Source of the DNA: a phage
DNA length: 64,000 nucleotides
Assembly: GCA_027262695.1 (NCBI GenBank)
Contig: GCA_027262695.1_4722.1
Strand: one strand, 5' to 3'
Part shown: positions 2,563 through 56,540 of the stretch, piece after piece
How the letters are laid out: the number at the start of each line of letters is the position of its first letter
Position numbering within the stretch: the first letter of the stretch is position 1
The notes under the pieces: model-generated
What the model was told of the DNA's origin: nothing
The model's input: only the letters and a program-made list of their open reading frames with translations
Database searches by the model: none
Program-made: the position numbers and the translations under genes

Positions 2563-3060
2563 CTACGCTGAGACCGCCTGCATGGATACGTACATGACAG
2601 GCTGCTTGCACTTTCATGCAAGAGGAGACTATATCAAACCGGCAGCTTCACCTTCTCGATCGTATCGAGAATGCGGTGCTGAAGTATTCTTCAGCAGCAC
2701 CTGCTACGGTAACCTACACTTCGAAGACGCTTGTCCTCTACAGGGTGGTAAATCCCTTAGTCGTTGAACCTGCGTTGTTTCCCATTCTTGGTTGCAAGAA
2801 TGCCGTATTACTACGCAACAACCAGGCTGCTGATTGCCCATTGTCTCGCACCTTAGCACCGCTTACGCGGCTTTTCTTTCAGCCTAAGCCTCTTACGGAG
2901 GTAGTGCATCTCAACTGTTGTTTCTGCCTTTCGGCACCCCATGGGTCGTTGAGCTTTAGGGGTTCCCAGCAATTCGTAGGTTTTTCAAGCACTCCCTTTC
3001 GGGAATACCGGACAACTTCCCTTGAAAAAAGTCTTTATTTTTCAAGGACTTATCCCCGCC
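2563..3060 (-). ncRNA. candidate group I self-splicing intron (boundaries approximate)
   Basis: Minus-strand core elements in canonical order: P AATTGCTGGGAA (2974-2963), Q AATCAGCAGCC (2835-2825), R GTTCAACGACTAAGGG (2769-2754), S GATATAGTCTCC (2635-2624); R GACTA pairs with S TAGTC (P7). No ORF >60 aa on this strand across ~600 bp between two long same-frame ORFs. Confidence 0.6.
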
Positions 3061-4518
3061 GAGTCCCTGGAGGTACGGGCTCGGAATGCAAACCGTTTCT
3101 ACGAACGATGCTTTTTGTTTCCAATCAGGGTATTCCCATGCGATATATCGTTCGTCAGTAATCGGTTCCCAATTACTATCAAGTTCTGTCTTGGGAGAAG
3201 CGTTAACGGTTGTACGCGCATAACAGGTTAACGGAATGACTGACTGCATGCCCGATACCGGATAACGTGTTACCATCGCAGCCAGGTTGTTCCAGTATTT
3301 ATATCCTGCGATATAGATAAGCTCAGTATAAGTAATGGGGTGAACATCCGCACCAGGTTTGTTAAGCATCTCTGGCGGTATTTCACTCATACCGCGGAAA
3401 AGTCGGAATGAATCGTTGTTTACATAAACCAAACAGAGATAACGACCATTCACCATGATAGGTTCGTTACGTACGCCTGGATCGCTTAGCGTGTTCAATA
3501 AACGTTCGATACCATCCCAAGTAGTAAAGTCATCGATGGTGTCAGGATCAAGTACGACTCGTTCACGTTCCATCGTTTCGGTATCGATAAGCTCAACCTC
3601 GGTAACATCACGGACGAAGATCTCTTGCAAAATACCAGTACGTAATGCGTGTTGCGTTATCGGAAGGGCTGCTTTGCTCATCTGGTATAGACCAAGCTGT
3701 ACAGATGTACATGACGTTTGGTTTGGAGAACCGAGAACCTCCGTTGTGGGGTTAATTGCCGAAATAACGTTACGGGTTGAGTTCCAAACACGACGTGAAC
3801 CGAACTTACCTTGGAAGATCCCTTTCTTACCCTGGAACATATCCAACAGCAATGCGTAGATATCATTGAAGGTTCTTTGCAGGCTCCAGCGCTGTCCGTC
3901 GTAGACAGGATCGTTGTAGTCCTTTAATCCATCGGGAACGGTATTGGAGATAGCAAGGAAACGACGGTAGAGCTCCGTGATTTCTTGTTCGCTTTCATAC
4001 CCGCCTTCCTTTACTTCTATTTCACGAAGACCAGCAGGTAACACCAATAAATGACGGGTCATCGCTTTGAACATGTTTTCTTCGACAACTTTAATACGCA
4101 GTTCTCGTTGCGCTGAACCTGTTGAAACGAACTTGATCTCCGCAACGTGTTGTGCGAAGAAACCGTAGCCGGTTTGTCCCGTTAATGCGTCAGCAGCAAC
4201 GAAATCACGCTGTTCTGGATCCCATCGTGCATAAGCTTTACCGGACATGATATCGCCATAAAGGTGTTTCAATCGAATAAGGCGATCGTAAATGACCGGA
4301 TGCAAGATTTCCACTTTACACTCGATGACCGCAAAGCGGCGATCACGATCTTCACTACCCGCACTCCCAAAGATGGTGTATGAATAAAAACCATCATCAT
4401 GGAAATTACCCGTACTCGGGTCACGGATACTCATGCTGGTAATCTTAGGAAGGAAACGCAACTGCTGCTTATCAAGATGCAGTATACTGATATTGAACGG
4501 CTCTCTGACTTTAGCCAT
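2956..4518 (-). CDS. hypothetical protein, putative 5' exon of intron-interrupted gene (last ~30-45 codons before the stop at 2956 are probably intron read-through)
   Basis: ORF track 2956..4551; start moved to ATG 4518 (MAKVREPF) preceded by AAGGAG with 7-nt spacer. ORF continues through the intron P element into a stop. Confidence 0.55.
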   Translation of the reverse strand: MAKVREPFNISILHLDKQQLRFLPKITSMSIRDPSTGNFHDDGFYSYTIFGSAGSEDRDRRFAVIECKVEILHPVIYDRLIRLKHLYGDIMSGKAYARWDPEQRDFVAADALTGQTGYGFFAQHVAEIKFVSTGSAQRELRIKVVEENMFKAMTRHLLVLPAGLREIEVKEGGYESEQEITELYRRFLAISNTVPDGLKDYNDPVYDGQRWSLQRTFNDIYALLLDMFQGKKGIFQGKFGSRRVWNSTRNVISAINPTTEVLGSPNQTSCTSVQLGLYQMSKAALPITQHALRTGILQEIFVRDVTEVELIDTETMERERVVLDPDTIDDFTTWDGIERLLNTLSDPGVRNEPIMVNGRYLCLVYVNNDSFRLFRGMSEIPPEMLNKPGADVHPITYTELIYIAGYKYWNNLAAMVTRYPVSGMQSVIPLTCYARTTVNASPKTELDSNWEPITDERYIAWEYPDWKQKASFVETVCIPSPYLQGLGGDKSLKNKDFFQGKLSGIPERECLKNLRIAGNP

Positions 4519-13554: not shown

Positions 13555-13570
13555 TATTCGCCGCATAGAA

Positions 13571-13602
13571 CCCTCCTCCAACCCGTAAGGGAAGGAGGAG
13601 GG
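13571..13602. terminator. bidirectional hairpin CCCTCCTCC-AACCCGTAAGGGAA-GGAGGAGGG
   Basis: Perfect 9-bp outer stem with inner CCC/GGG and GTAA loop between convergent genes. Confidence 0.6.
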
Positions 13603-13608
13603 TTTATG

Positions 13609-17929: not shown

Positions 17930-18604
17930 TTAACCCTCGTCGAGATTATTCTGGAGATGCATTGCGGTGAGAATAACGCCAACTGCTGAAACCGATTTTG
18001 CTTTACTGTCTTCCGGAAGCTGTTCCAGACTTACCGTACCGGTTTCTAACAACATGCGGTTCATCGCGTTGAACTTCTTATCGTCACCACCACGCGCCTG
18101 CATCAACTCTCGGTTTACGTTCGGCATCGACCGTCCTAACGTCGCCTGCATTTCTGGCTGGCTCCACGTTGAGCCTTTACTGCCACCCGTCGGCTGGTTG
18201 GTCAACTGGTCTTTGGTGTTGTTGTTTTTCGGGATCGATATTTTAGCACTCAACGTTTCGGCTTGTCGGCGGTTTGGAATCAGGTACAATCTGGTTGGGC
18301 GGTCACGAAGCACCAATTGCCCTGTTTTCTGGTCGGTGAGATAAATGCGCTGGAAGAAGGGGAAACCGTATTTCTTACCAACTTCCAACGCACGTTTTAT
18401 CGTCACCTCGTTTTTGTTCATGTTGGGTACCCAGATGGGTAGAATCTCTTTCTTATCCCGACATAAACGCATATAGGCATCAAACGTCTCATCATCGATT
18501 TCAGCAAAACGTTTTTTGTAAATAGCGTAAGTCGGGCTAGATTCACCCACCAGGTCTTTGATATACCCAAGAATGAATTTTTCTGCTGCAGCGCGGTTGG
18601 ACAT
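17930..18604 (-). CDS. hypothetical protein
   Basis: 224-aa ORF in operon. Confidence 0.55.
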   Translation of the reverse strand: MSNRAAAEKFILGYIKDLVGESSPTYAIYKKRFAEIDDETFDAYMRLCRDKKEILPIWVPNMNKNEVTIKRALEVGKKYGFPFFQRIYLTDQKTGQLVLRDRPTRLYLIPNRRQAETLSAKISIPKNNNTKDQLTNQPTGGSKGSTWSQPEMQATLGRSMPNVNRELMQARGGDDKKFNAMNRMLLETGTVSLEQLPEDSKAKSVSAVGVILTAMHLQNNLDEG

Positions 18605-26412: not shown

Positions 26413-26418
26413 CATATT

Positions 26419-26450
26419 CCCTCCTCCAACCCGTAAGGGAAGGAGGAGGG
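26419..26450. terminator. hairpin CCCTCCTCC-AACCCGTAAGGGAA-GGAGGAGGG followed by TATGCCGT and A12
   Basis: Same hairpin family as 13571; motif at 26452-26459. Confidence 0.6.
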
Positions 26451-26521
26451 CTATGCCGTAAAGCAAAAAAAAAAAATGATAGTCACGAGCCCTCCAATGA
26501 AGGAGAGCCGTGACCGTCAGT

Positions 26522-30564: not shown

Positions 30565-30568
30565 AAAC

Positions 30569-30600
30569 CATCCTCCCGACCCGTAAGGGAAGGGAGGATG
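30569..30600. terminator. hairpin CATCCTCCC-GACCCGTAAGGGAA-GGGAGGATG followed by TATGCCGTTAAA
   Basis: Same family as 13571/26419; motif at 30604-30611. Confidence 0.6.
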
Positions 30601-30617
30601 AAATATGCCGTTAAACG

Positions 30618-43639: not shown

Positions 43640-44075
43640 TTGTTTTCACGTTGTTTGATTAACGTATTGATTTCTGATGATGATAACATCGATATGTTTG
43701 CTGTTATCAAGAAGGTAATATAGCCGTGAAAGGATTTGTATTACAGAAAGGATATTTGTTTTTAAGAAGGGACGATGGTTATCAGGAAGGAGGTTATCGG
43801 TAGGTGTAGGAGAGGGGATTTCAAGGAAGGTTTAAGAGGATAGTTATGTTGTTTAGTTGAGAGTTTGCTAAAATAGCTTTATCGTTATCTTAGTTTATCT
43901 GTGTATTCGTTAGGTATCTTGATTTATCTTCTTAATGATCTTTTCAAAAGTGTTATCATGGTTATCTTAGGTTATGTCTTAATTGTTTTATCTTGGTATG
44001 TTTAAGTTGTTTTAAGTTATCTGTTTATCTATCTTGTTATCTTGTTTAAGTTGTTAATGGCTTATCTTCAAAACA
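43640..44075. repeat. AT-rich non-coding region with purine-rich (A/G)GAAGG repeats (about 43700-43850) and at least 8 TATCTT iterons (about 43880-44070)
   Basis: No credible ORF; copies such as GTTATCTTAG, GGTATCTTGA, TTTATCTTCT, GGTTATCTTAGG, TTTATCTTGG, GCTTATCTTC; TGTTTAAGTTGTT twice. Confidence 0.6.
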
Positions 44076-44085
44076 ATGGATAACA

Positions 44086-44131
44086 TGTGTTTACTACGCT
44101 CGTTGAGTTATAACTCAACGGTAACACATGT
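44086..44131. promoter_or_regulatory. composite palindrome: perfect 20-bp CGTTGAGTTATAACTCAACG flanked by inverted ACATGTGTT / AACACATGT
   Basis: 44101-44120 is its own reverse complement; flanking arms extend the dyad imperfectly. Confidence 0.45.
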
Positions 44132-44535
44132 CATCTGTGCATTACACTACGTTACATGCTTATCAACGTTTTGTGAAGACAAAACGTTCAACTCTAAAAA
44201 ACCATTTGTGATACTCTTCTTCACGTTGTTCATCAGAGTATCTCGTCTATCCTCACTGCGTTCGCATACGACATCACCGTTATACGCTAACGCTACGCTT
44301 ATAGCTTATAACTCTAAGGATAAAAACATAAACTCGCTTCGCTCGTTTAGTTTTTCTTTTTCTTAGAGTTATCATGTTGCTCGTCTCTAAAGGACTTCGC
44401 TCCTCCCCCGTCCCCCGAAGGGGCCGAGGTCGTGGAAATTTTACTTTCCAAATACATTTACAACGTCTGTAAACTTTTACCGACACATACCTAATCTTAT
44501 ATTTAAAATTAGAAAAAGAGAAAATACGAACATAA

Positions 44536-44584: not shown

Positions 44585-45478
44585 TTAATCGGAAGTGTTA
44601 TAACCGAATACTGCTTTACCGTAGGTGTGAGTACCATCACTGAGTGACAATACTAATACGTGGTTATACGCATCGTTAACACCCTTGTCGGTAGAATCGG
44701 TGGTAACACCGTTGTAGACAAAGGTAGCTGATTGCAGATTGGTTTTCAGTTCATTGATGATATCATCACTTACACCAGTCTGCTCTTTAATCAGAGTAGT
44801 CAGGTTACCTGCTAAGCTTGCGTCGAGATTTACTTCGTTGCCAGTAATAGCTTGTAAACCTGAAGCGTAAGTACTGAAGTCTAACGGATAGGTTAACAGA
44901 CGTGCTGACGTTTTGGTACCATTGCCTTCATCAACGTAGGTTAAGTTACCCAGGTTGGTAACCTTGATAATGTTAGACAGATCCAGCGTTGTGTTATAAA
45001 CTTTAACTTGAACAGAACCATACCAAGCCAACGAATCTTCTTTGGCTTCCAGGGTAACGGTTTGGATACCTGACTGATCAAAGGTAACGGGATTAGATAA
45101 CGTTTCAGCTTTGATGTCTTTTGTTTTATCCAGGAACTTCTCGCCGGAAGGCGTAACCATACCGTAGCGTTGAGCTACGAGGTCGACCACGTCACCGATG
45201 GTGGTGTTTGCTTCAACACTAACGCGCACCGCGATCTTCTGGAACCATTTAGCCAGATCCAGACGATGATAGGTGACATCGCGGGTATTGAAGTACGGTG
45301 TACCATCACCCGGACTGAGTGTTAATGTTGCTGCACTATCAGAATCGCTTTTGGATTTAAGAACGTATTTGAGATCAGTGTATTTGAAACTGGCTCCCGT
45401 ATCGGCGTTAAGCTGGTTGATCTCATCAACGATAAGTTGCCACGGTGTTTTCAAAGTAAGTGATACTCGACTTGACAT
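44585..45478 (-). CDS. structural-region paralog family member A (YYDR-YG-LAWTGSV family)
   Basis: VTYHRLDL, LVAQRYGMV, LAWYGSVQV. Confidence 0.55.
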   Translation of the reverse strand: MSSRVSLTLKTPWQLIVDEINQLNADTGASFKYTDLKYVLKSKSDSDSAATLTLSPGDGTPYFNTRDVTYHRLDLAKWFQKIAVRVSVEANTTIGDVVDLVAQRYGMVTPSGEKFLDKTKDIKAETLSNPVTFDQSGIQTVTLEAKEDSLAWYGSVQVKVYNTTLDLSNIIKVTNLGNLTYVDEGNGTKTSARLLTYPLDFSTYASGLQAITGNEVNLDASLAGNLTTLIKEQTGVSDDIINELKTNLQSATFVYNGVTTDSTDKGVNDAYNHVLVLSLSDGTHTYGKAVFGYNTSD

Positions 45479-45514
45479 TTTTTTACCTCGATGGTTGTTA
45501 CATCACTCTCAAAA

Positions 45515-45562
45515 GATGTAAATGTTTACAGAAAATAATATATTTTATATTTAATGTAAATG
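45515..45562. promoter_or_regulatory. direct repeats ATGTAAATG (x2) with TGTAAA-tg-TTTACA inverted repeat in AT-rich divergent promoter
   Basis: 45515-45523 and 45554-45562; inverted repeat 45517-45530. Confidence 0.35.
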
Positions 45563-45620
45563 ATATGGAGAACGACTCCGAATCTCCTTTTCGACCATCA
45601 AAATCAGAGGACACACAGTC

Positions 45621-46163
45621 ATGGCCTTAGACTTTAACAAAGCAGCGAAATCCCTTCTGCTCGATCTTATCAACACCAAAGCAACTCGCACACTGACCGA
45701 AGAAGAACTGCAGTTCGGTACTCCGGGGGCATCTTCCGAACATTCTAAGAACACCGTTATTCAGCTGGATGCTGCGGATGAAGCAGAAAACCTGCAGGGT
45801 ACTCAGCAGTTCTACTACGATCGTCTGGCTCTATCTGACGTTTTCGCTGATGTAACCGGCGATGTTACTTTCGAACTGCCGCACGGTACTGAAAGCATCC
45901 AGGCTTCCGAGCTGGTAAGCAAGCTGGTCACCAAATTCGGCCTGGCTTCCCTGACCGGTGAAATCAAAGAAGAAACCTTCCAGCTGTCTGCAGGTACTGT
46001 TGGTCAGGTAACTCTGAGCGCGATCGAGAACGGTCTGGTATATACCGGCACTCTGCAGGTTGCTCTGACCTATGCAGCAGCACCGAAAGACGAACTGGCA
46101 ACCGTTCTGGCGAATAACGTAGCTGAAGGTTTCGTGAAACCTGAAGTAGCTGTCGTTGGCTAA
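45621..46163 (+). CDS. paralog family member B; strongly codon-optimised, probably very abundant virion protein
   Basis: FYYDRLAL, LVTKFGLA, LVYTGTLQV; near-exclusive CTG/GGT/CGT/ACC/TTC codon use unlike neighbours. Confidence 0.65.
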   Translation: MALDFNKAAKSLLLDLINTKATRTLTEEELQFGTPGASSEHSKNTVIQLDAADEAENLQGTQQFYYDRLALSDVFADVTGDVTFELPHGTESIQASELVSKLVTKFGLASLTGEIKEETFQLSAGTVGQVTLSAIENGLVYTGTLQVALTYAAAPKDELATVLANNVAEGFVKPEVAVVG

Positions 46164-46172
46164 TAAGCACGT

Positions 46173-46213
46173 AGAGCAATAGTATGGGTTTTGTACAGCT
46201 CGGCTATTGCTCT
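46173..46213 (+). terminator. stem-loop AGAGCAATAG-n21-CTATTGCTCT directly after stop of 45621..46163
   Basis: 10-bp perfect stem; further hairpins downstream in a ~290-nt 3' region. Confidence 0.4.
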
Positions 46214-46362
46214 TCTACAATTTGGTTGTAACAATCTGCGTGGTTGCACGCTTATCTTTCTCATTGAACGCTTCGTATGATGCGTGGTGTTGAAAGGGTT
46301 GTGGATCTCCTCAAGCGGCCAGGGACCCAGACCAACCTGAATAAACACAAACACATGTTAAG

Positions 46363-46394
46363 CCCCTCCTCATCCGTTATTGGGTGGGGAGGGG
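46363..46394. terminator. bidirectional hairpin CCCCTCCTCATCC...GGGTGGGGAGGGG
   Basis: Between convergent genes 45621..46163 and 46458..47093. Confidence 0.5.
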
Positions 46395-46457
46395 TCTTAT
46401 ACGTCTTTATGCGTTCCGTTCGTTCTGGAGCGTTTTAGAACGGTTTACGACAGGGTT

Positions 46458-47093
46458 TTATTCAGCACTGAAACCGTTCAAACGGATAGCTTCGTAACGT
46501 TTACGTTCACGACGTTTACGCGCCTGCCAACCGTAAATGAACTTCTCGTCTTTCTCACGACGTTCAGCTAATTCGATGTAATACATGCTCTGCATATCCA
46601 GCATCGCGTCGATAAGGTAATCTTTACCTTGCTCGCCACGTTTTGCGATATAAGCGTCCAACGCACCTAAGGTTTTAGGTCCCATCCCACCATCAGCGTC
46701 AATATCTTTCCAGTAAGTTTGACGGTTGTTCATGACGTTGAGGTAACGCTGGAGGTTCTTAACGGCAACGGATTTGCCTGCATTGATACCCAGATCAAAG
46801 AGACGGTCAGCTAAGAACACGGAACGCTTCATGACGTCATCAAGCTTCATCTTATCCCAGAAGTGGGTTTTGTAGATGAAGAACGCCATGTCGTAGGTCA
46901 GATTGCGCATATTACCATTCCAACCGAATTTCGTTTTCAGCGTGGTTTTGTATTGATCGGCGAGCGCTTTCGTAATTCCCATCATGGTTTCATTACCGCT
47001 GTCATCTGGGTCGTTGACGTATCCCGCCTCGATGTTGGTTTTATCACGAATGATGAATTCGCAGGTAAAATCTTTTTCAGTAATCTTGGTCAT
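46458..47093 (-). CDS. endolysin, GH108-like muramidase with PG_binding_3-like C-terminal domain
   Basis: EAGYVNDPDDSGNETMMGIT matches the GH108 motif (EGGYVNDP.D.GG.T.GIT); DADGGMGPKTLGAL matches the peptidoglycan-binding motif. Confidence 0.8.
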   Translation of the reverse strand: MTKITEKDFTCEFIIRDKTNIEAGYVNDPDDSGNETMMGITKALADQYKTTLKTKFGWNGNMRNLTYDMAFFIYKTHFWDKMKLDDVMKRSVFLADRLFDLGINAGKSVAVKNLQRYLNVMNNRQTYWKDIDADGGMGPKTLGALDAYIAKRGEQGKDYLIDAMLDMQSMYYIELAERREKDEKFIYGWQARKRRERKRYEAIRLNGFSAE

Positions 47094-47185
47094 TAGAACT
47101 CCTCGTTTAGATAACGATTTAGAGGAACAGGAAGGCCCTAGAACGCGATAAACGATTTAAACCAGGCAAACCCTAGATTAAACTT

Positions 47186-47199
47186 TTCGAAGCGTTAGA
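47186..47199. promoter_or_regulatory. perfect palindrome TAGAACGCGTTCTA upstream of endolysin gene
   Basis: Related TAGAACG / CGTTCT words also at about 47138, 46411-46432. Confidence 0.35.
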
Positions 47200-47219
47200 A
47201 CGCGTTCTAGAGCGTGAAA

Positions 47220-49268
47220 TTAAATACCCTTGGTTCCTTTCACGCGGTGCGCAATTTCTTCAACCATTGCACGCAAGGCACGAAGCTGTTGGTCGTGTTC
47301 GTACCAACCGCCTAACAGAACCCCGCTATACACCATGGTGTCCAGACTTAACAGTCCTTTATCTGATACGTTGATCATTTCAGGGAACTGTTCTTGTACA
47401 CGTTGTGCGATAACACCGATCTTCTCAACATCAGGATCGTAGTCGTGACGGAAACGGGCAAGCCCGGTGTATGCCATTTCACGTAAACGATCACTGAAAG
47501 ATTCTGGATGGTCTTTCAGATAACGGATGTCGTGTTTACTACGCTCATCTGAACGGATGTATGCGTTAGGAACATCGATGTTGCTGTTGAAGTACAACGC
47601 GCTACCACCACCTGCAGAGTTACCCCAATAGAAGCTAGTAAGAATGCTACCGCCATTACCTGTAACATGCACGGTGCTTCCCACCCTCGTTCCACCGCTA
47701 CCATCAACGAAGACCAGTTTGTTTCCGCTGTAAGAACCCCAGAACAGACGACTATCGATGATGTTGGTTGCGGCGAGGCGGGCGTTACGTGGTGTAGAAT
47801 AGACGGTGTTGATATCTTGCTGCGCCTGTGCGTCAGAAGCGATACCGTAGTTCTGCACATTACCTAAACCTACTTGGGCTTTTGTAACAGCGTGAGGGTT
47901 GTCTCGACGGTTAGCGTGATTGTTAACCAGATCGCCCGCCAATTTCTGAATTGCCCAGTTGGTAGACTGTGGCGTCATGTAACGGTTAGTTGCAGAACCA
48001 CCTTGCGCCTCAGCTTGGTTAGCGGTTGGGTAGTTCTCAACGCTTCCTAACCCTACTTGTGCCTTAGACACTTGGTGCGGGTTATTCTTGTCGGCAATAT
48101 GTGCATTAAGCGGAACTAACGCGAAGGTCTCGATGGACGCTTTGGTTGTGTTCGGTGCCATTAATCGGTTAGCTGCAACCCCAGCACGTGCTTCATCCTC
48201 CGAAGCCATCGGATAGTCTTGCACATTACCTAATCCTACCTGCGCTTTGGTCACCTTGTGCGGGTTGTTGTAATCGGTTTTATGTGCGTTAAGCGGAATC
48301 AATGCGAATTGTTCAATCGCTGCAACGGTACGTAGCGGCGTCATGAATCGGTTATTCGCTGTTCCGTCCTTCGCCTCGCTATCCGAAGCGGTCGGGAAGT
48401 TATCAACGTTCCCAAGGTTAACCTGTGCTTTGGTAACGCTATGTGGGTTATCTTTACGATTAGCGTGAGCGTCGACTAGATCCCCACCCAGTTTAGCAAT
48501 CGCCCATCCAACCGTTTGTGCGGTCATGTATCGGTCAGGTGCTGTACCGGCTTCTGCCTCCGCCTTGTTTGCGGTAGGATAGTTCTGTACATTACCTAAA
48601 CCTACTTGGGCTTTTGTGGTTTCGTGCGGGTTATCGGTACGGTTAGCATGCGCGTAATGCAGATCGGTAAGGTCTTTATCCGCCGCTTGCATGTCTTTAC
48701 GTAGCTGATCGATTGCCGCCCAGAGACGGTTATCGGACGCAGCATCACCGATAAGTATTGCGGCTTTCAGCGAATAGATCGCTAAGCAAAGATGTTCGGT
48801 ACCGTAGATAGCACTAACATGGTGGATGTGTGGTTCAGGCGGATAAAGTTCCGGTTTGTTCTTGATGTCGTCCCAGTTGATCGGACGATCGTCAAGTTTG
48901 AGTTCTTCGATAGCCTGATATAACGCGTCAATAAGACTTACGTAAACACCACCGATGATACGATAGTCGTTAATTAACGTCCCCTCGATATCATCGTTGA
49001 TGATGGCGATCGCCGCACAGATTTCTTTACCTGCGTAAAGCGTCGCATCCTGATACAAGAAGATGGGTTTATAATCCACGCCTCGTACCAGTGTCTTACC
49101 GGTAAGCTTTTCAGTGATGACCAGACTTTCGGTAAAGAACGGTCCGCCATCAAGGGCGTAACATTTATTCTCGGTTCGTGGAACGGTATGCTCTTCACCA
49201 ACGATGTGGTTGCTGGCGAGTGTACCGGTCCAGTCCTCGGGGTACTTCAGGGTAATTGGTGTCGACAT
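47220..49268 (-). CDS. tail fibre protein with five NPH..TKAQVGLGNV repeats and C-terminal S74-type intramolecular chaperone domain
   Basis: Repeats about 47846-48656; C-terminal SDERSKHDIRYL...GVIAQRVQE (about 47220-47590) matches the autoproteolytic chaperone motif of endosialidase/T5 pb1-type fibres. Confidence 0.75.
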   Translation of the reverse strand: MSTPITLKYPEDWTGTLASNHIVGEEHTVPRTENKCYALDGGPFFTESLVITEKLTGKTLVRGVDYKPIFLYQDATLYAGKEICAAIAIINDDIEGTLINDYRIIGGVYVSLIDALYQAIEELKLDDRPINWDDIKNKPELYPPEPHIHHVSAIYGTEHLCLAIYSLKAAILIGDAASDNRLWAAIDQLRKDMQAADKDLTDLHYAHANRTDNPHETTKAQVGLGNVQNYPTANKAEAEAGTAPDRYMTAQTVGWAIAKLGGDLVDAHANRKDNPHSVTKAQVNLGNVDNFPTASDSEAKDGTANNRFMTPLRTVAAIEQFALIPLNAHKTDYNNPHKVTKAQVGLGNVQDYPMASEDEARAGVAANRLMAPNTTKASIETFALVPLNAHIADKNNPHQVSKAQVGLGSVENYPTANQAEAQGGSATNRYMTPQSTNWAIQKLAGDLVNNHANRRDNPHAVTKAQVGLGNVQNYGIASDAQAQQDINTVYSTPRNARLAATNIIDSRLFWGSYSGNKLVFVDGSGGTRVGSTVHVTGNGGSILTSFYWGNSAGGGSALYFNSNIDVPNAYIRSDERSKHDIRYLKDHPESFSDRLREMAYTGLARFRHDYDPDVEKIGVIAQRVQEQFPEMINVSDKGLLSLDTMVYSGVLLGGWYEHDQQLRALRAMVEEIAHRVKGTKGI

Positions 49269-52381: not shown

Positions 52382-52897
52382 TTACCCCATGTAACGTTTT
52401 TGGCCGAGGATGAAGACTTTGTTAAATACCACCGAAGTGATTCCTGTTGCGTTACAGCTCACCTGCCCGACGCGAATTGCTGTTGACGTATCGACCCCAG
52501 CACTACTCTGCCAGATCCAATCGATCGATCCGTCTTTCTGACGAATGAAAAGATAACCGGTTTTGTTCGCCCAGTCGGAAGTAAGTTTTTTGATGTCTAG
52601 CGTTCCCTTCGCCAGAATATAGTCGGTACCGGCGATCATGACGGGTATTTCAGGATACGAGATTACCGTACCGCTGGCAGTAACGTTGCTGATGCGTTCG
52701 CTACGAATATCGGTACAGTCACCGAAATACGCTACGGGGAGTATCCCCTTAGGGAGCTTTTTGCCGATTCTCGTATCGATCGTGTTTTTATCGGGTGCGT
52801 CGATTTGCGCTGCGGTGACTTGGTTAGGGTTATCCTTCCTTGCGTACCATGTCGTCATGCGAGCACCCAATTCACTCATTTTTGTGCCCATTTTCAC
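52382..52897 (-). CDS. small fibre-associated protein with N-terminal NPN-type motif
   Basis: KDNPNQVTAAQIDAP near N-terminus; paralog of 51892..52377. Confidence 0.5.
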   Translation of the reverse strand: MKMGTKMSELGARMTTWYARKDNPNQVTAAQIDAPDKNTIDTRIGKKLPKGILPVAYFGDCTDIRSERISNVTASGTVISYPEIPVMIAGTDYILAKGTLDIKKLTSDWANKTGYLFIRQKDGSIDWIWQSSAGVDTSTAIRVGQVSCNATGITSVVFNKVFILGQKRYMG

Positions 52898-52936
52898 ATC
52901 CTATCGAAAAATAAAAAGAAGGAAAGGTGGGTAGAA

Positions 52937-52954
52937 CCCACCCATCCGTTATAA
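52937..52954 (-). terminator. hairpin GGTGGGT-aga-ACCCACC followed by T-rich run on minus strand
   Basis: Overlaps stop of fibre gene 52949..55102; TTCCTTTCCTTCTTTTTATTTTT follows on transcribed strand. Confidence 0.55.
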
Positions 52955-56484: not shown

Positions 56485-56499
56485 ACACGGCAAACATAA

Positions 56500-56531
56500 C
56501 CCTCCTCCAACCCATCAGGGAAGGAGGAGGG
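56500..56531. terminator. hairpin CCCTCCTCC-AACCCATCAGGGAA-GGAGGAGGG followed by TATGCCGT
   Basis: Same family; motif at 56534-56541. Confidence 0.6.
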
Positions 56532-56540
56532 CATATGCCG

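Follow-up and report, generated by a model that had tools for sequence, protein, structure and literature searches.

A predicted RNA hairpin between the tail-fibre and endolysin genes of Goslar-like jumbo phages

The spacer between the tail-fibre and endolysin genes in a 64-kb stretch of phage DNA (the window) specifies an imperfect RNA hairpin of 79 nt, designated HP1, at 47135–47213 on the minus strand. It was identified by folding, with a covariance model and by comparison with relatives. HP1 is structured, strand-specific, present in a single copy and retained across relatives. Intercistronic RNA hairpins are an ordinary kind of element; this one is undescribed, and it may well influence endolysin expression at the RNA level. 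With moderate confidence, we lean towards HP1 being a conserved sense-strand hairpin of a late polycistronic transcript, which would act in cis and uncouple the endolysin from the upstream virion genes.

The first-pass annotation had described the endolysin gene as flanked on both sides by TAGAACG/CGTTCT words in inverted orientation, and had suggested operator sites for lysis timing or footprints of cassette exchange. The symmetric word pair on the two flanks is not a real feature. The upstream words, TAGAACGCG and CGCGTTCT, do belong together, as the arms of the single HP1 hairpin; the match on the downstream side looks like chance.

Position and structure of HP1

The window was 91.6% identical to Escherichia phage vB_EcoM_Goslar across 4 kb. 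Goslar is a nucleus-forming jumbo phage of the Chimalliviridae that infects E. coli. The gene between the word pairs (46458–47093, minus strand) codes for a 211-aa homologue of Goslar gp024, and its Glyco_hydro_108 (GH108) and PG_binding_3 domains identified the protein as an endolysin, in agreement with the first-pass annotation. Upstream of it lies a tail-fibre-like gene (47220–49268, minus strand; 682 aa) with a C-terminal Peptidase_S74 chaperone, homologous to Goslar gp025. Downstream lies a convergent, gp023-like DUF7941 virion gene (45621–46163). Elsewhere in the window, a group I intron at 2605–3037 was the sole Rfam match above the gathering score.

The spacer between the tail-fibre and endolysin genes is 126 nt long and is the only sizeable one in the run of genes from gp028 to gp024. 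This run is bounded by a terminator at about 52,892–52,948 and the next at 46,363–46,394. Lying between these terminators, at about 52.9 kb and 46.4 kb, HP1 is intra-operonic. No promoter was found ahead of the tail-fibre gene, and the spacer preceding that gene is only 13 nt.

HP1 begins 6 nt past the tail-fibre stop codon and ends 41 nt ahead of the endolysin start codon. When the spacer was folded as sense RNA, its 5' arm GCUCUAGAACGCG (47201–47213, minus strand; read from 47213 to 47201) was predicted to pair with the 3' arm CGCGUUCUAGGGC (47135–47147, minus strand; read from 47147 to 47135) across 53 nt, forming a 13-bp base. The general architecture is a basal stem of 11–13 bp, a 4x3 internal loop, an AACG/CGUU helix, an A-rich asymmetric loop, and a distal stem of 11–12 bp with the loop GUUUG. 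This amounts to 26–30 predicted pairs in three helical segments.

The upstream words fell within opposite arms, CGCGTTCT at 47201–47208 and AGAACGCG at 47140–47147. All three strings of the first-pass annotation were present, and the coordinates of two of them were off by 10 bases. The word CTAGAACGCG was found where it had been placed, at 47138–47147, and is included in the 3' arm. The perfect 14-bp palindrome TAGAACGCGTTCTA lies at 47196–47209 (no strand) instead of 47186–47199, and on the plus strand the 5' arm includes its right half. This palindrome arises only because the UUCU of the internal loop succeeds the 5' arm of HP1, and it is not conserved as a palindrome. The downstream string CGTTCTGGAGCGTTTTAGAACGG exists too, at 46421–46443 rather than 46411–46432.

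In its 129-nt context HP1 gave a minimum free energy (MFE) of -41 kcal/mol (z = -5.0), and none of 200 shuffles was as stable. A 90-nt segment over HP1 ranked in the top 0.7% of 12,782 such segments on both strands, despite a GC content of 43%. On the other hand, the antisense of this segment reached only the 30th percentile (-22.1 vs -34.9 kcal/mol for the sense strand). The fold energy was thus well under both the shuffles and the genomic background, and on a single strand, as expected of a structured cis-regulatory RNA element.

The sense RNA was more stable than the antisense by 3–20 kcal/mol in all 11 distinct variants, because each of them contains 3–6 G·U pairs. This consistent asymmetry points to an RNA structure of the coding strand, not to a DNA palindrome.

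The covariance model of HP1 gave a 99.7-bit match, the only copy in the window, and no second copy was found with it in the window or in the 237-kb Goslar genome. In Goslar, HP1 occupies 18377–18455 of NC_048170. The search for an Rfam family gave no relevant match at E <= 1 in 45400–47400.

HP1 in relatives and the variable spacer

Goslar-like loci were gathered from IMG/VR, metagenomes and public assemblies, and 33 of them were examined for HP1. The covariance model found it once in each (33/33), and on folding the relatives' copies took the same architecture (z = -2.3 to -4.5).

The loci fell into three arrangements. In architecture A, to which the window belongs, the order is tail fibre, HP1 and endolysin. 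In architecture B (9 loci), a 165-nt spacer and a 317-aa open reading frame (ORF) follow the tail fibre and precede HP1 and the endolysin. In architecture C (6 loci), an opposite-strand HNH/Stc1 endonuclease gene with its own hairpin sits between HP1 and the endolysin. HP1 was left intact by both insertions, the 317-aa ORF upstream of it and the HNH gene downstream. Across A and B it starts 1–6 nt after the preceding stop codon, whichever gene that codon belongs to.

In the B-type, the interior and 5' two-thirds of HP1 are only about 65% identical, yet its length is exactly equal. The basal stem and the AACG/CGUU helix are kept, and the distal stem is rebuilt from different sequence. At pair 11–69, most A-types have G-C, two have G·U and the B-type has A-U. 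Nine distinct A-type sequences were compared; their internal paired columns contained five substitutions in all, every one a transition that retained the pair via G·U. Unpaired columns varied about twice as often as paired ones (5/23 vs 7/56).

Covariation was scored in a MAFFT alignment that holds only two shallow sequence families, and in it 96.8% of cells were paired, compared with 96.2% in shuffles. One double change and several one-sided changes to G·U were found, and with these two families the score was not above shuffles. The 22 loci added later gave almost no new sequence variants of HP1. Endolysin variants of 87–96% identity numbered more than 55 in the protein search.

A sister lineage, represented by a 259-kb contig, encodes an endolysin that is 70% identical. 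Here the gp026 homologue is followed after 16 nt by the endolysin gene, and both the tail-fibre gene and HP1 are absent. Endolysin expression in general can thus do without HP1. Two additional relatives have spacers of 20–27 nt.

Homologues of HP1 were also sought near more distant endolysins (PaBG, Eowyn, phiEaH2, SPN3US and metagenomic relatives of 58–71% identity), where the spacer was absent or held a canonical terminator. The corresponding spacer ahead of the endolysin homologue in phiEaH2 and SPN3US carries a canonical terminator, a GC-rich hairpin that ends in a U-rich tail. This suggested that a hairpin at that position is a recurring solution.

These comparisons bear on an alternative, that HP1 is a neutral inverted repeat of no function, perhaps a decayed terminator or a junction relic of the insertion of the tail-fibre module, and seems conserved only through the close kinship of the genomes. 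The A-type genomes are about 90% identical overall, the covariation score did not exceed that of shuffles in the two shallow families, and the sister lineage does without HP1. Moreover, the genome is palindrome-rich, and the window has 86 inverted repeats of 11 nt or longer whose copies are no more than 120 nt apart. Nevertheless, we consider a neutral origin rather unlikely. The B-type copy is strongly diverged and yet equal in length and architecture, the internal stem substitutions all preserve pairs, the strand asymmetry holds in 11 of 11 variants, and two independent insertions have avoided HP1.

The same loci were used to evaluate the suggestion that the endolysin is an exchanged cassette with inverted-repeat footprints. 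All loci examined had the endolysin, in synteny with the DUF7941 genes, and the variable segments were all upstream of it. Its position relative to the downstream neighbours was constant in all relatives examined, and the downstream word was not conserved, which spoke against the suggestion. Matching terminal repeats at both ends of the endolysin gene were not conserved across 11 relatives, nor do the flanks in Goslar have a 7-mer in common. In the comparison of related phages, conservation was borne out for the upstream element; it did not extend to the downstream word, and the endolysin showed no presence or absence variation.

The spacer between the tail fibre and the endolysin, on the other hand, is a hot spot of gene gain and loss, involving the 317-aa ORF, the HNH endonuclease gene and the tail-fibre gene itself. 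The words do not act as repeats that mark these junctions. Near 47144, within the 3' arm of HP1, homology between the window and the B-type falls from 94% to about 65%. The variation of the upstream genes and this drop within HP1 led us to regard the spacer as a mosaic boundary and insertion hot spot.

A second alternative follows the same lines. The words would mark a module boundary at which the conserved arms of HP1 serve as short homology for swapping a host-range module, so that the cassette would be the tail-fibre gene, with or without extra ORFs, and not the endolysin. The drop in homology inside the 3' arm, the three architectures that differ exactly in this spacer, and the joint absence of the tail-fibre gene and HP1 in the sister lineage are all consistent with it. 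We still find it very unlikely. No inserted segment has a second HP1-like copy at its other end, the spacer between the tail fibre and the 317-aa ORF in B-types contains none, and the left junction falls inside the end of the tail-fibre gene and not at a repeat. The strand-specific G·U pairs and the rebuilt distal stem would be left unexplained, and the downstream word is not conserved.

A direct repeat around the endolysin gene, CGTTCTAGAGCGT upstream and CGTTCTGGAGCGT downstream, was noticed by eye. The two copies agree at 12 of 13 positions in the window, with fewer agreeing in relatives, and the repeat was treated as chance because it lies at no insertion junction.

Translational control, operators and the flanking words

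In phage T4, a leader hairpin of gene e delays translation of the lysis enzyme; the ribosome-binding site is sequestered by the helix itself, which also contains late promoters (PMC3014915). The present locus is similar in having an RNA structure before an endolysin gene that read-through transcripts would reach as well. It differs in that the strong helix here, HP1, ends 30 nt short of the Shine-Dalgarno sequence, and the hairpin that covers this sequence is no better than chance.

The latter, designated HP2, is a weak candidate at 47099–47124 (minus strand), in which CCUC is paired with the Shine-Dalgarno GAGGAG (47099–47104). Alone it gave an MFE of -6.1 kcal/mol with z = -0.2 (B-type, z = -1.5; Goslar, z = -0.2). 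As a candidate for sequestering the Shine-Dalgarno sequence it was set aside, its stability being no better than that of shuffles. The HNH insertion of relatives falls inside HP2, and the 3' half of HP2 is lost there.

Under control of the T4 gene e type, the Shine-Dalgarno sequence would be paired with the pyrimidine tract behind HP1, as in HP2, and translation of read-through transcripts would stay poor until this structure was removed or a transcript began within it. The T4 lysozyme gene is the precedent (PMC3014915). The CCUC/GAGG pairing was predicted in most variants, the substitutions were mostly in the loop, and the B-type has a longer pairing, UUUAAAAU/AUUUUAAA. Against these stand the low stability of HP2, the loss of its 3' half in the relatives with the HNH insertion, and the lack of a TATG-type late promoter motif inside the 5' arm, so that we judge such control highly improbable. 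In the spacer as a whole, neither TATG nor TTATGCCG was found as a late promoter motif.

Three promoter-like resemblances were followed and discarded. The spacer of the window begins with TTTCACG, like the early promoter TTTCACGGCTATATTAC, and the spacers of relatives do not. A AAATCGTT/TATATCGTT motif, seen by eye ahead of several genes, showed no intergenic enrichment. The likeness of TTTATCGCGTT to TTTATGCCGT concerned a motif that is the tail of the phiKZ-type terminator and not a promoter, and no GC hairpin precedes TTTATCGCGTT.

The frequency of the words themselves was also determined. TAGAACG occurs 7 times in the window, with 8.2 copies expected, and is thus not enriched; across the full Goslar genome, the hexamer pair has a frequency of about one per kb. 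A scan of the window and the full Goslar genome with the 7-mer, the hexamers and both 12-bp palindromes gave no enrichment and no second site. At up to one mismatch, the 12-mers AGAACGCGTTCT and CGTTCTAGAACG were found only at this locus, besides one unrelated one-mismatch match each in the window and in Goslar.

With up to three mismatches, the palindrome was found 6 times in the window against 3.05 expected, a count reached by 8 of 100 shuffles. Perfect palindromes of at least 14 bp numbered 14 in the window, compared with about 4 expected from Markov models. Since the window already has 14, one extra palindrome of this length is unremarkable. Only some variants have the palindrome in perfect form: Goslar, L003, L021 and others have CGTTGT as the half-site, and the B-type has ATTT.

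Sharing of one word as frequent as that between these two endolysin flanks was seen in 0.1–0.7% of dinucleotide shuffles. The same hexamer statistic was attained by 3 of the 21 window genes with two usable flanks, and on the flank-sharing statistic the endolysin of Goslar tied with six of 82 genes, and no 7-mer is common to its two flanks. For local clustering among 2,076 hexamer classes, AGAACG ranked 81 and GTTCTA ranked 12. The word cluster is real and mildly unusual, and is not compelling after the search space of 64 kb is counted.

That the upstream words are duplex-DNA operators, by which a dimeric phage regulator would time lysis, is extremely improbable: a perfect 14-bp palindrome and a third half-site do lie within 70 bp upstream of the lysis gene, but neither the 64-kb window nor the Goslar genome of 237 kb has another copy of the palindrome or the hairpin, leaving a single site per genome, the palindrome is broken in Goslar and many other relatives, palindromes of its length are common in this genome, and the words pair as an RNA stem whose interior hairpin and strand-specific stability are unlike a duplex-DNA operator.

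On the downstream side, the words CGTTCT...TAGAACGG (46421–46443, no strand) lie in the 3' UTR of the endolysin gene. The hairpin proposed for them was predicted as a weak one, with a 6-bp stem and a 16-nt loop. Whether drawn as CGUUCU/AGAACG or as CCGUUC/GAACGG, only 5 of 11 relatives kept its 5' arm, no change was compensating, and the hairpin was rejected as broken in the other six. Among the 11 relatives, TAGAACGG itself is replaced by TAGGACGG or TAGGGCGG in five, and a further one has GAGCCGG. Distant relatives lack such a 3' UTR, and their terminator follows directly after the endolysin stop codon. From the sequence comparison, the downstream TAGAACG/CGTTCT words look like a chance resemblance in a lineage-variable 3' UTR.

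Beyond these words, a bidirectional, GC-rich phiKZ-type hairpin, CCCCTCC...GGGGAGGGG and then TCTTATACG, lies at 46363–46394 (no strand). It was recognized by its fold and by motif comparison, and is an annotated terminator in Goslar. It forms the shared end of the endolysin transcript and the convergent gp023-like transcript. The phiKZ terminator motif consists of a CCYCC...GGRGG stem and then TTATKYYGT, in full 5'-BCCYCCCCHWWDGGGRRGGBYTTATKYYGT-3' (PMC10914365), which this hairpin approximates. The motif and a phiKZ-like early promoter, TATATTAC, were the most enriched intergenic signals in Goslar.

Proposed role of HP1

HP1 resembles the phiKZ-type terminators in being a hairpin just past a stop codon, in a genome that uses many such terminators. 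It differs in being 79 nt long, AU-rich, interrupted and single-copy, whereas the terminators are a repeated motif. The GC-rich stem is absent, and HP1 is succeeded by CUUCCUGUUCCUCU/CUUCCUGUUCC and not by TTAT. Judged by its sequence, HP1 is not a canonical terminator of its phage group.

The R-sites of phage T7 are intercistronic processing hairpins for RNase III. Like these, HP1 is a long irregular hairpin of more than 20 bp with internal loops, in the spacer of a polycistronic phage mRNA and close behind the upstream stop codon; the intercistronic helix is predicted to be at least about two turns long, as is typical of R-sites. Unlike these, it has no sequence similarity to the R-sites, and its cleavage by RNase III is putative. 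The present phage transcribes by its own multisubunit RNA polymerases inside the phage nucleus, and access of host RNase III would need prior export of the mRNA.

Stem-loops are also known at the 3' ends of phage 'morons' and gene modules. HP1 is likewise at the downstream edge of a tail-fibre gene that one lineage has and its sister lacks. It differs in that the tail-fibre gene is without its own promoter, and in that the B-type HP1 follows the 317-aa ORF instead.

We interpret HP1 as a hairpin that would form in the sense RNA of a late polycistronic transcript, provided that transcription runs across the spacer. There it may be a cis-acting mRNA element that causes partial termination or pausing, serves as a processing site of the RNase III type, or stabilizes the 3' end of the tail-fibre message. 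The amount of translatable endolysin message could then be set independently of the abundantly expressed virion genes upstream. No transcript-end map of Goslar was found in the literature searched.

A further-reaching version, which we regard as clearly unlikely, is that HP1 is a dedicated lysis riboregulator of nucleus-forming jumbo phages. As a sense-strand RNA structure, it would be recognized by a phage or host factor (an RNA-binding protein, a nuclease, or the machinery of mRNA export or localization) and would set the timing or amount of translatable endolysin message, and it would in addition be the preferred recombination boundary of a host-range module.

To our knowledge, little is known of lysis-gene control and mRNA processing in chimalliviruses, and nvRNAP promoters are poorly defined. 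HP1 offers a concrete and cheap target for transcript-end mapping and mutagenesis in a model jumbo phage that infects E. coli. The spacer, as a natural insertion site, is useful for engineering and for reading host-range mosaicism.

Mosaic endolysin gene and the sister lineage

The endolysin gene (46458-47093, minus strand) is a mosaic. In two patches, 46606-46705 and 46956-47055, its identity to relatives fell to 58-78%, and the flanks of the gene were 84-100% identical to those of the relatives.

A sister lineage was represented by L050 (a 259-kb contig, GCA_902731065.1), L056 and L057, and its endolysin showed 58-71% identity. L050 lacked both the tail-fibre gene and HP1, the 79-nt RNA hairpin that lies upstream of the endolysin gene in the window. 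There, a spacer of 16 nt separated a homologue of gp026 (32% identity) from the endolysin gene downstream of it, and the terminator came directly 3' of the endolysin stop codon. In L056 and L057, the endolysin gene was preceded by spacers of 20-27 nt.

Genes inserted on either side of HP1

Upstream of HP1, an ORF of 317-318 aa was inserted between the tail-fibre gene and the hairpin in nine loci (L036, at 1743-2861, and L019, L038, L039 and L041-L045), all of which shared an identical endolysin. The spacer preceding this ORF carried runs of 11 and 10 G residues. A PHROG search with the ORF gave no match, and the tblastn matches were all weak; they lay in Salmonella phage SPLA10, in Serratia phage PCH45 and, at about 97.1 kb, in Goslar.

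Downstream of HP1, a gene for an HNH/Stc1-type endonuclease of 363-369 aa was inserted before the endolysin start, on the strand opposite to endolysin (L002, at 2880-3989; also L058-L061 and L063). Its start codon and the endolysin ATG were 11 nt apart, and in these six loci the gene replaced the 3' half of HP2, the weak candidate hairpin at the endolysin Shine-Dalgarno sequence. The product is probably a free-standing homing endonuclease. In the window itself, a group I intron was detected at 2605-3037 on the minus strand (Rfam RF00028, 58.4 bits); one is also annotated in Goslar, adjoining an RNA polymerase subunit gene.

Palindromes, word clusters and transcription signals

Perfect palindromes 14 bp or longer were in approximately threefold excess in the window, with 14 observed where Markov models of order 1-5 predict 3.9-4.7. 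In Goslar, 31 were observed, and equal frequencies of the four bases would give about 14.5. The majority were intragenic.

Two phiKZ-type transcription signals recurred in the window (examples at 13569-13604, 26413-26460, 30565-30617 and 56485-56540) and genome-wide in Goslar. One was a terminator, CCCTCC...GGAGGG followed by TTATGCCGT, which was frequently bidirectional where genes converge. The other was an early-promoter motif, TTTCACGGCTATATTACTTA.

The strongest local word cluster of the window was formed by GATAAC/GTTATC, with 11 copies within 800 nt at 43640-44400 (Poisson 9e-8). It occupied the AT-rich spacer of divergent genes, adjoining an early-promoter-like GGTAATATAGCCGTGAAA, and contained TTATCTTAGGTTATG-like units in tandem. 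The cluster looks like iterons.

Conserved stretch between the gp023-like gene and the terminator

The non-coding stretch from the stop codon of the gp023-like gene to the terminator (46164-46362) was 96-100% identical across 11 Goslar-like contigs, whereas the adjoining genes were 60-95% identical. A 64-aa ORF on the minus strand (46160-46354), with a GTG/TTG start 8 nt downstream of GGAGGGG, was intact in 10 of the 11 contigs and found no match in Pfam or PHROG. The plus-strand fold of the stretch gave a z of -4.9. One possibility for this stretch is a small gene; another is that gp023, a very abundant virion protein, has a structured 3' UTR or an sRNA here.
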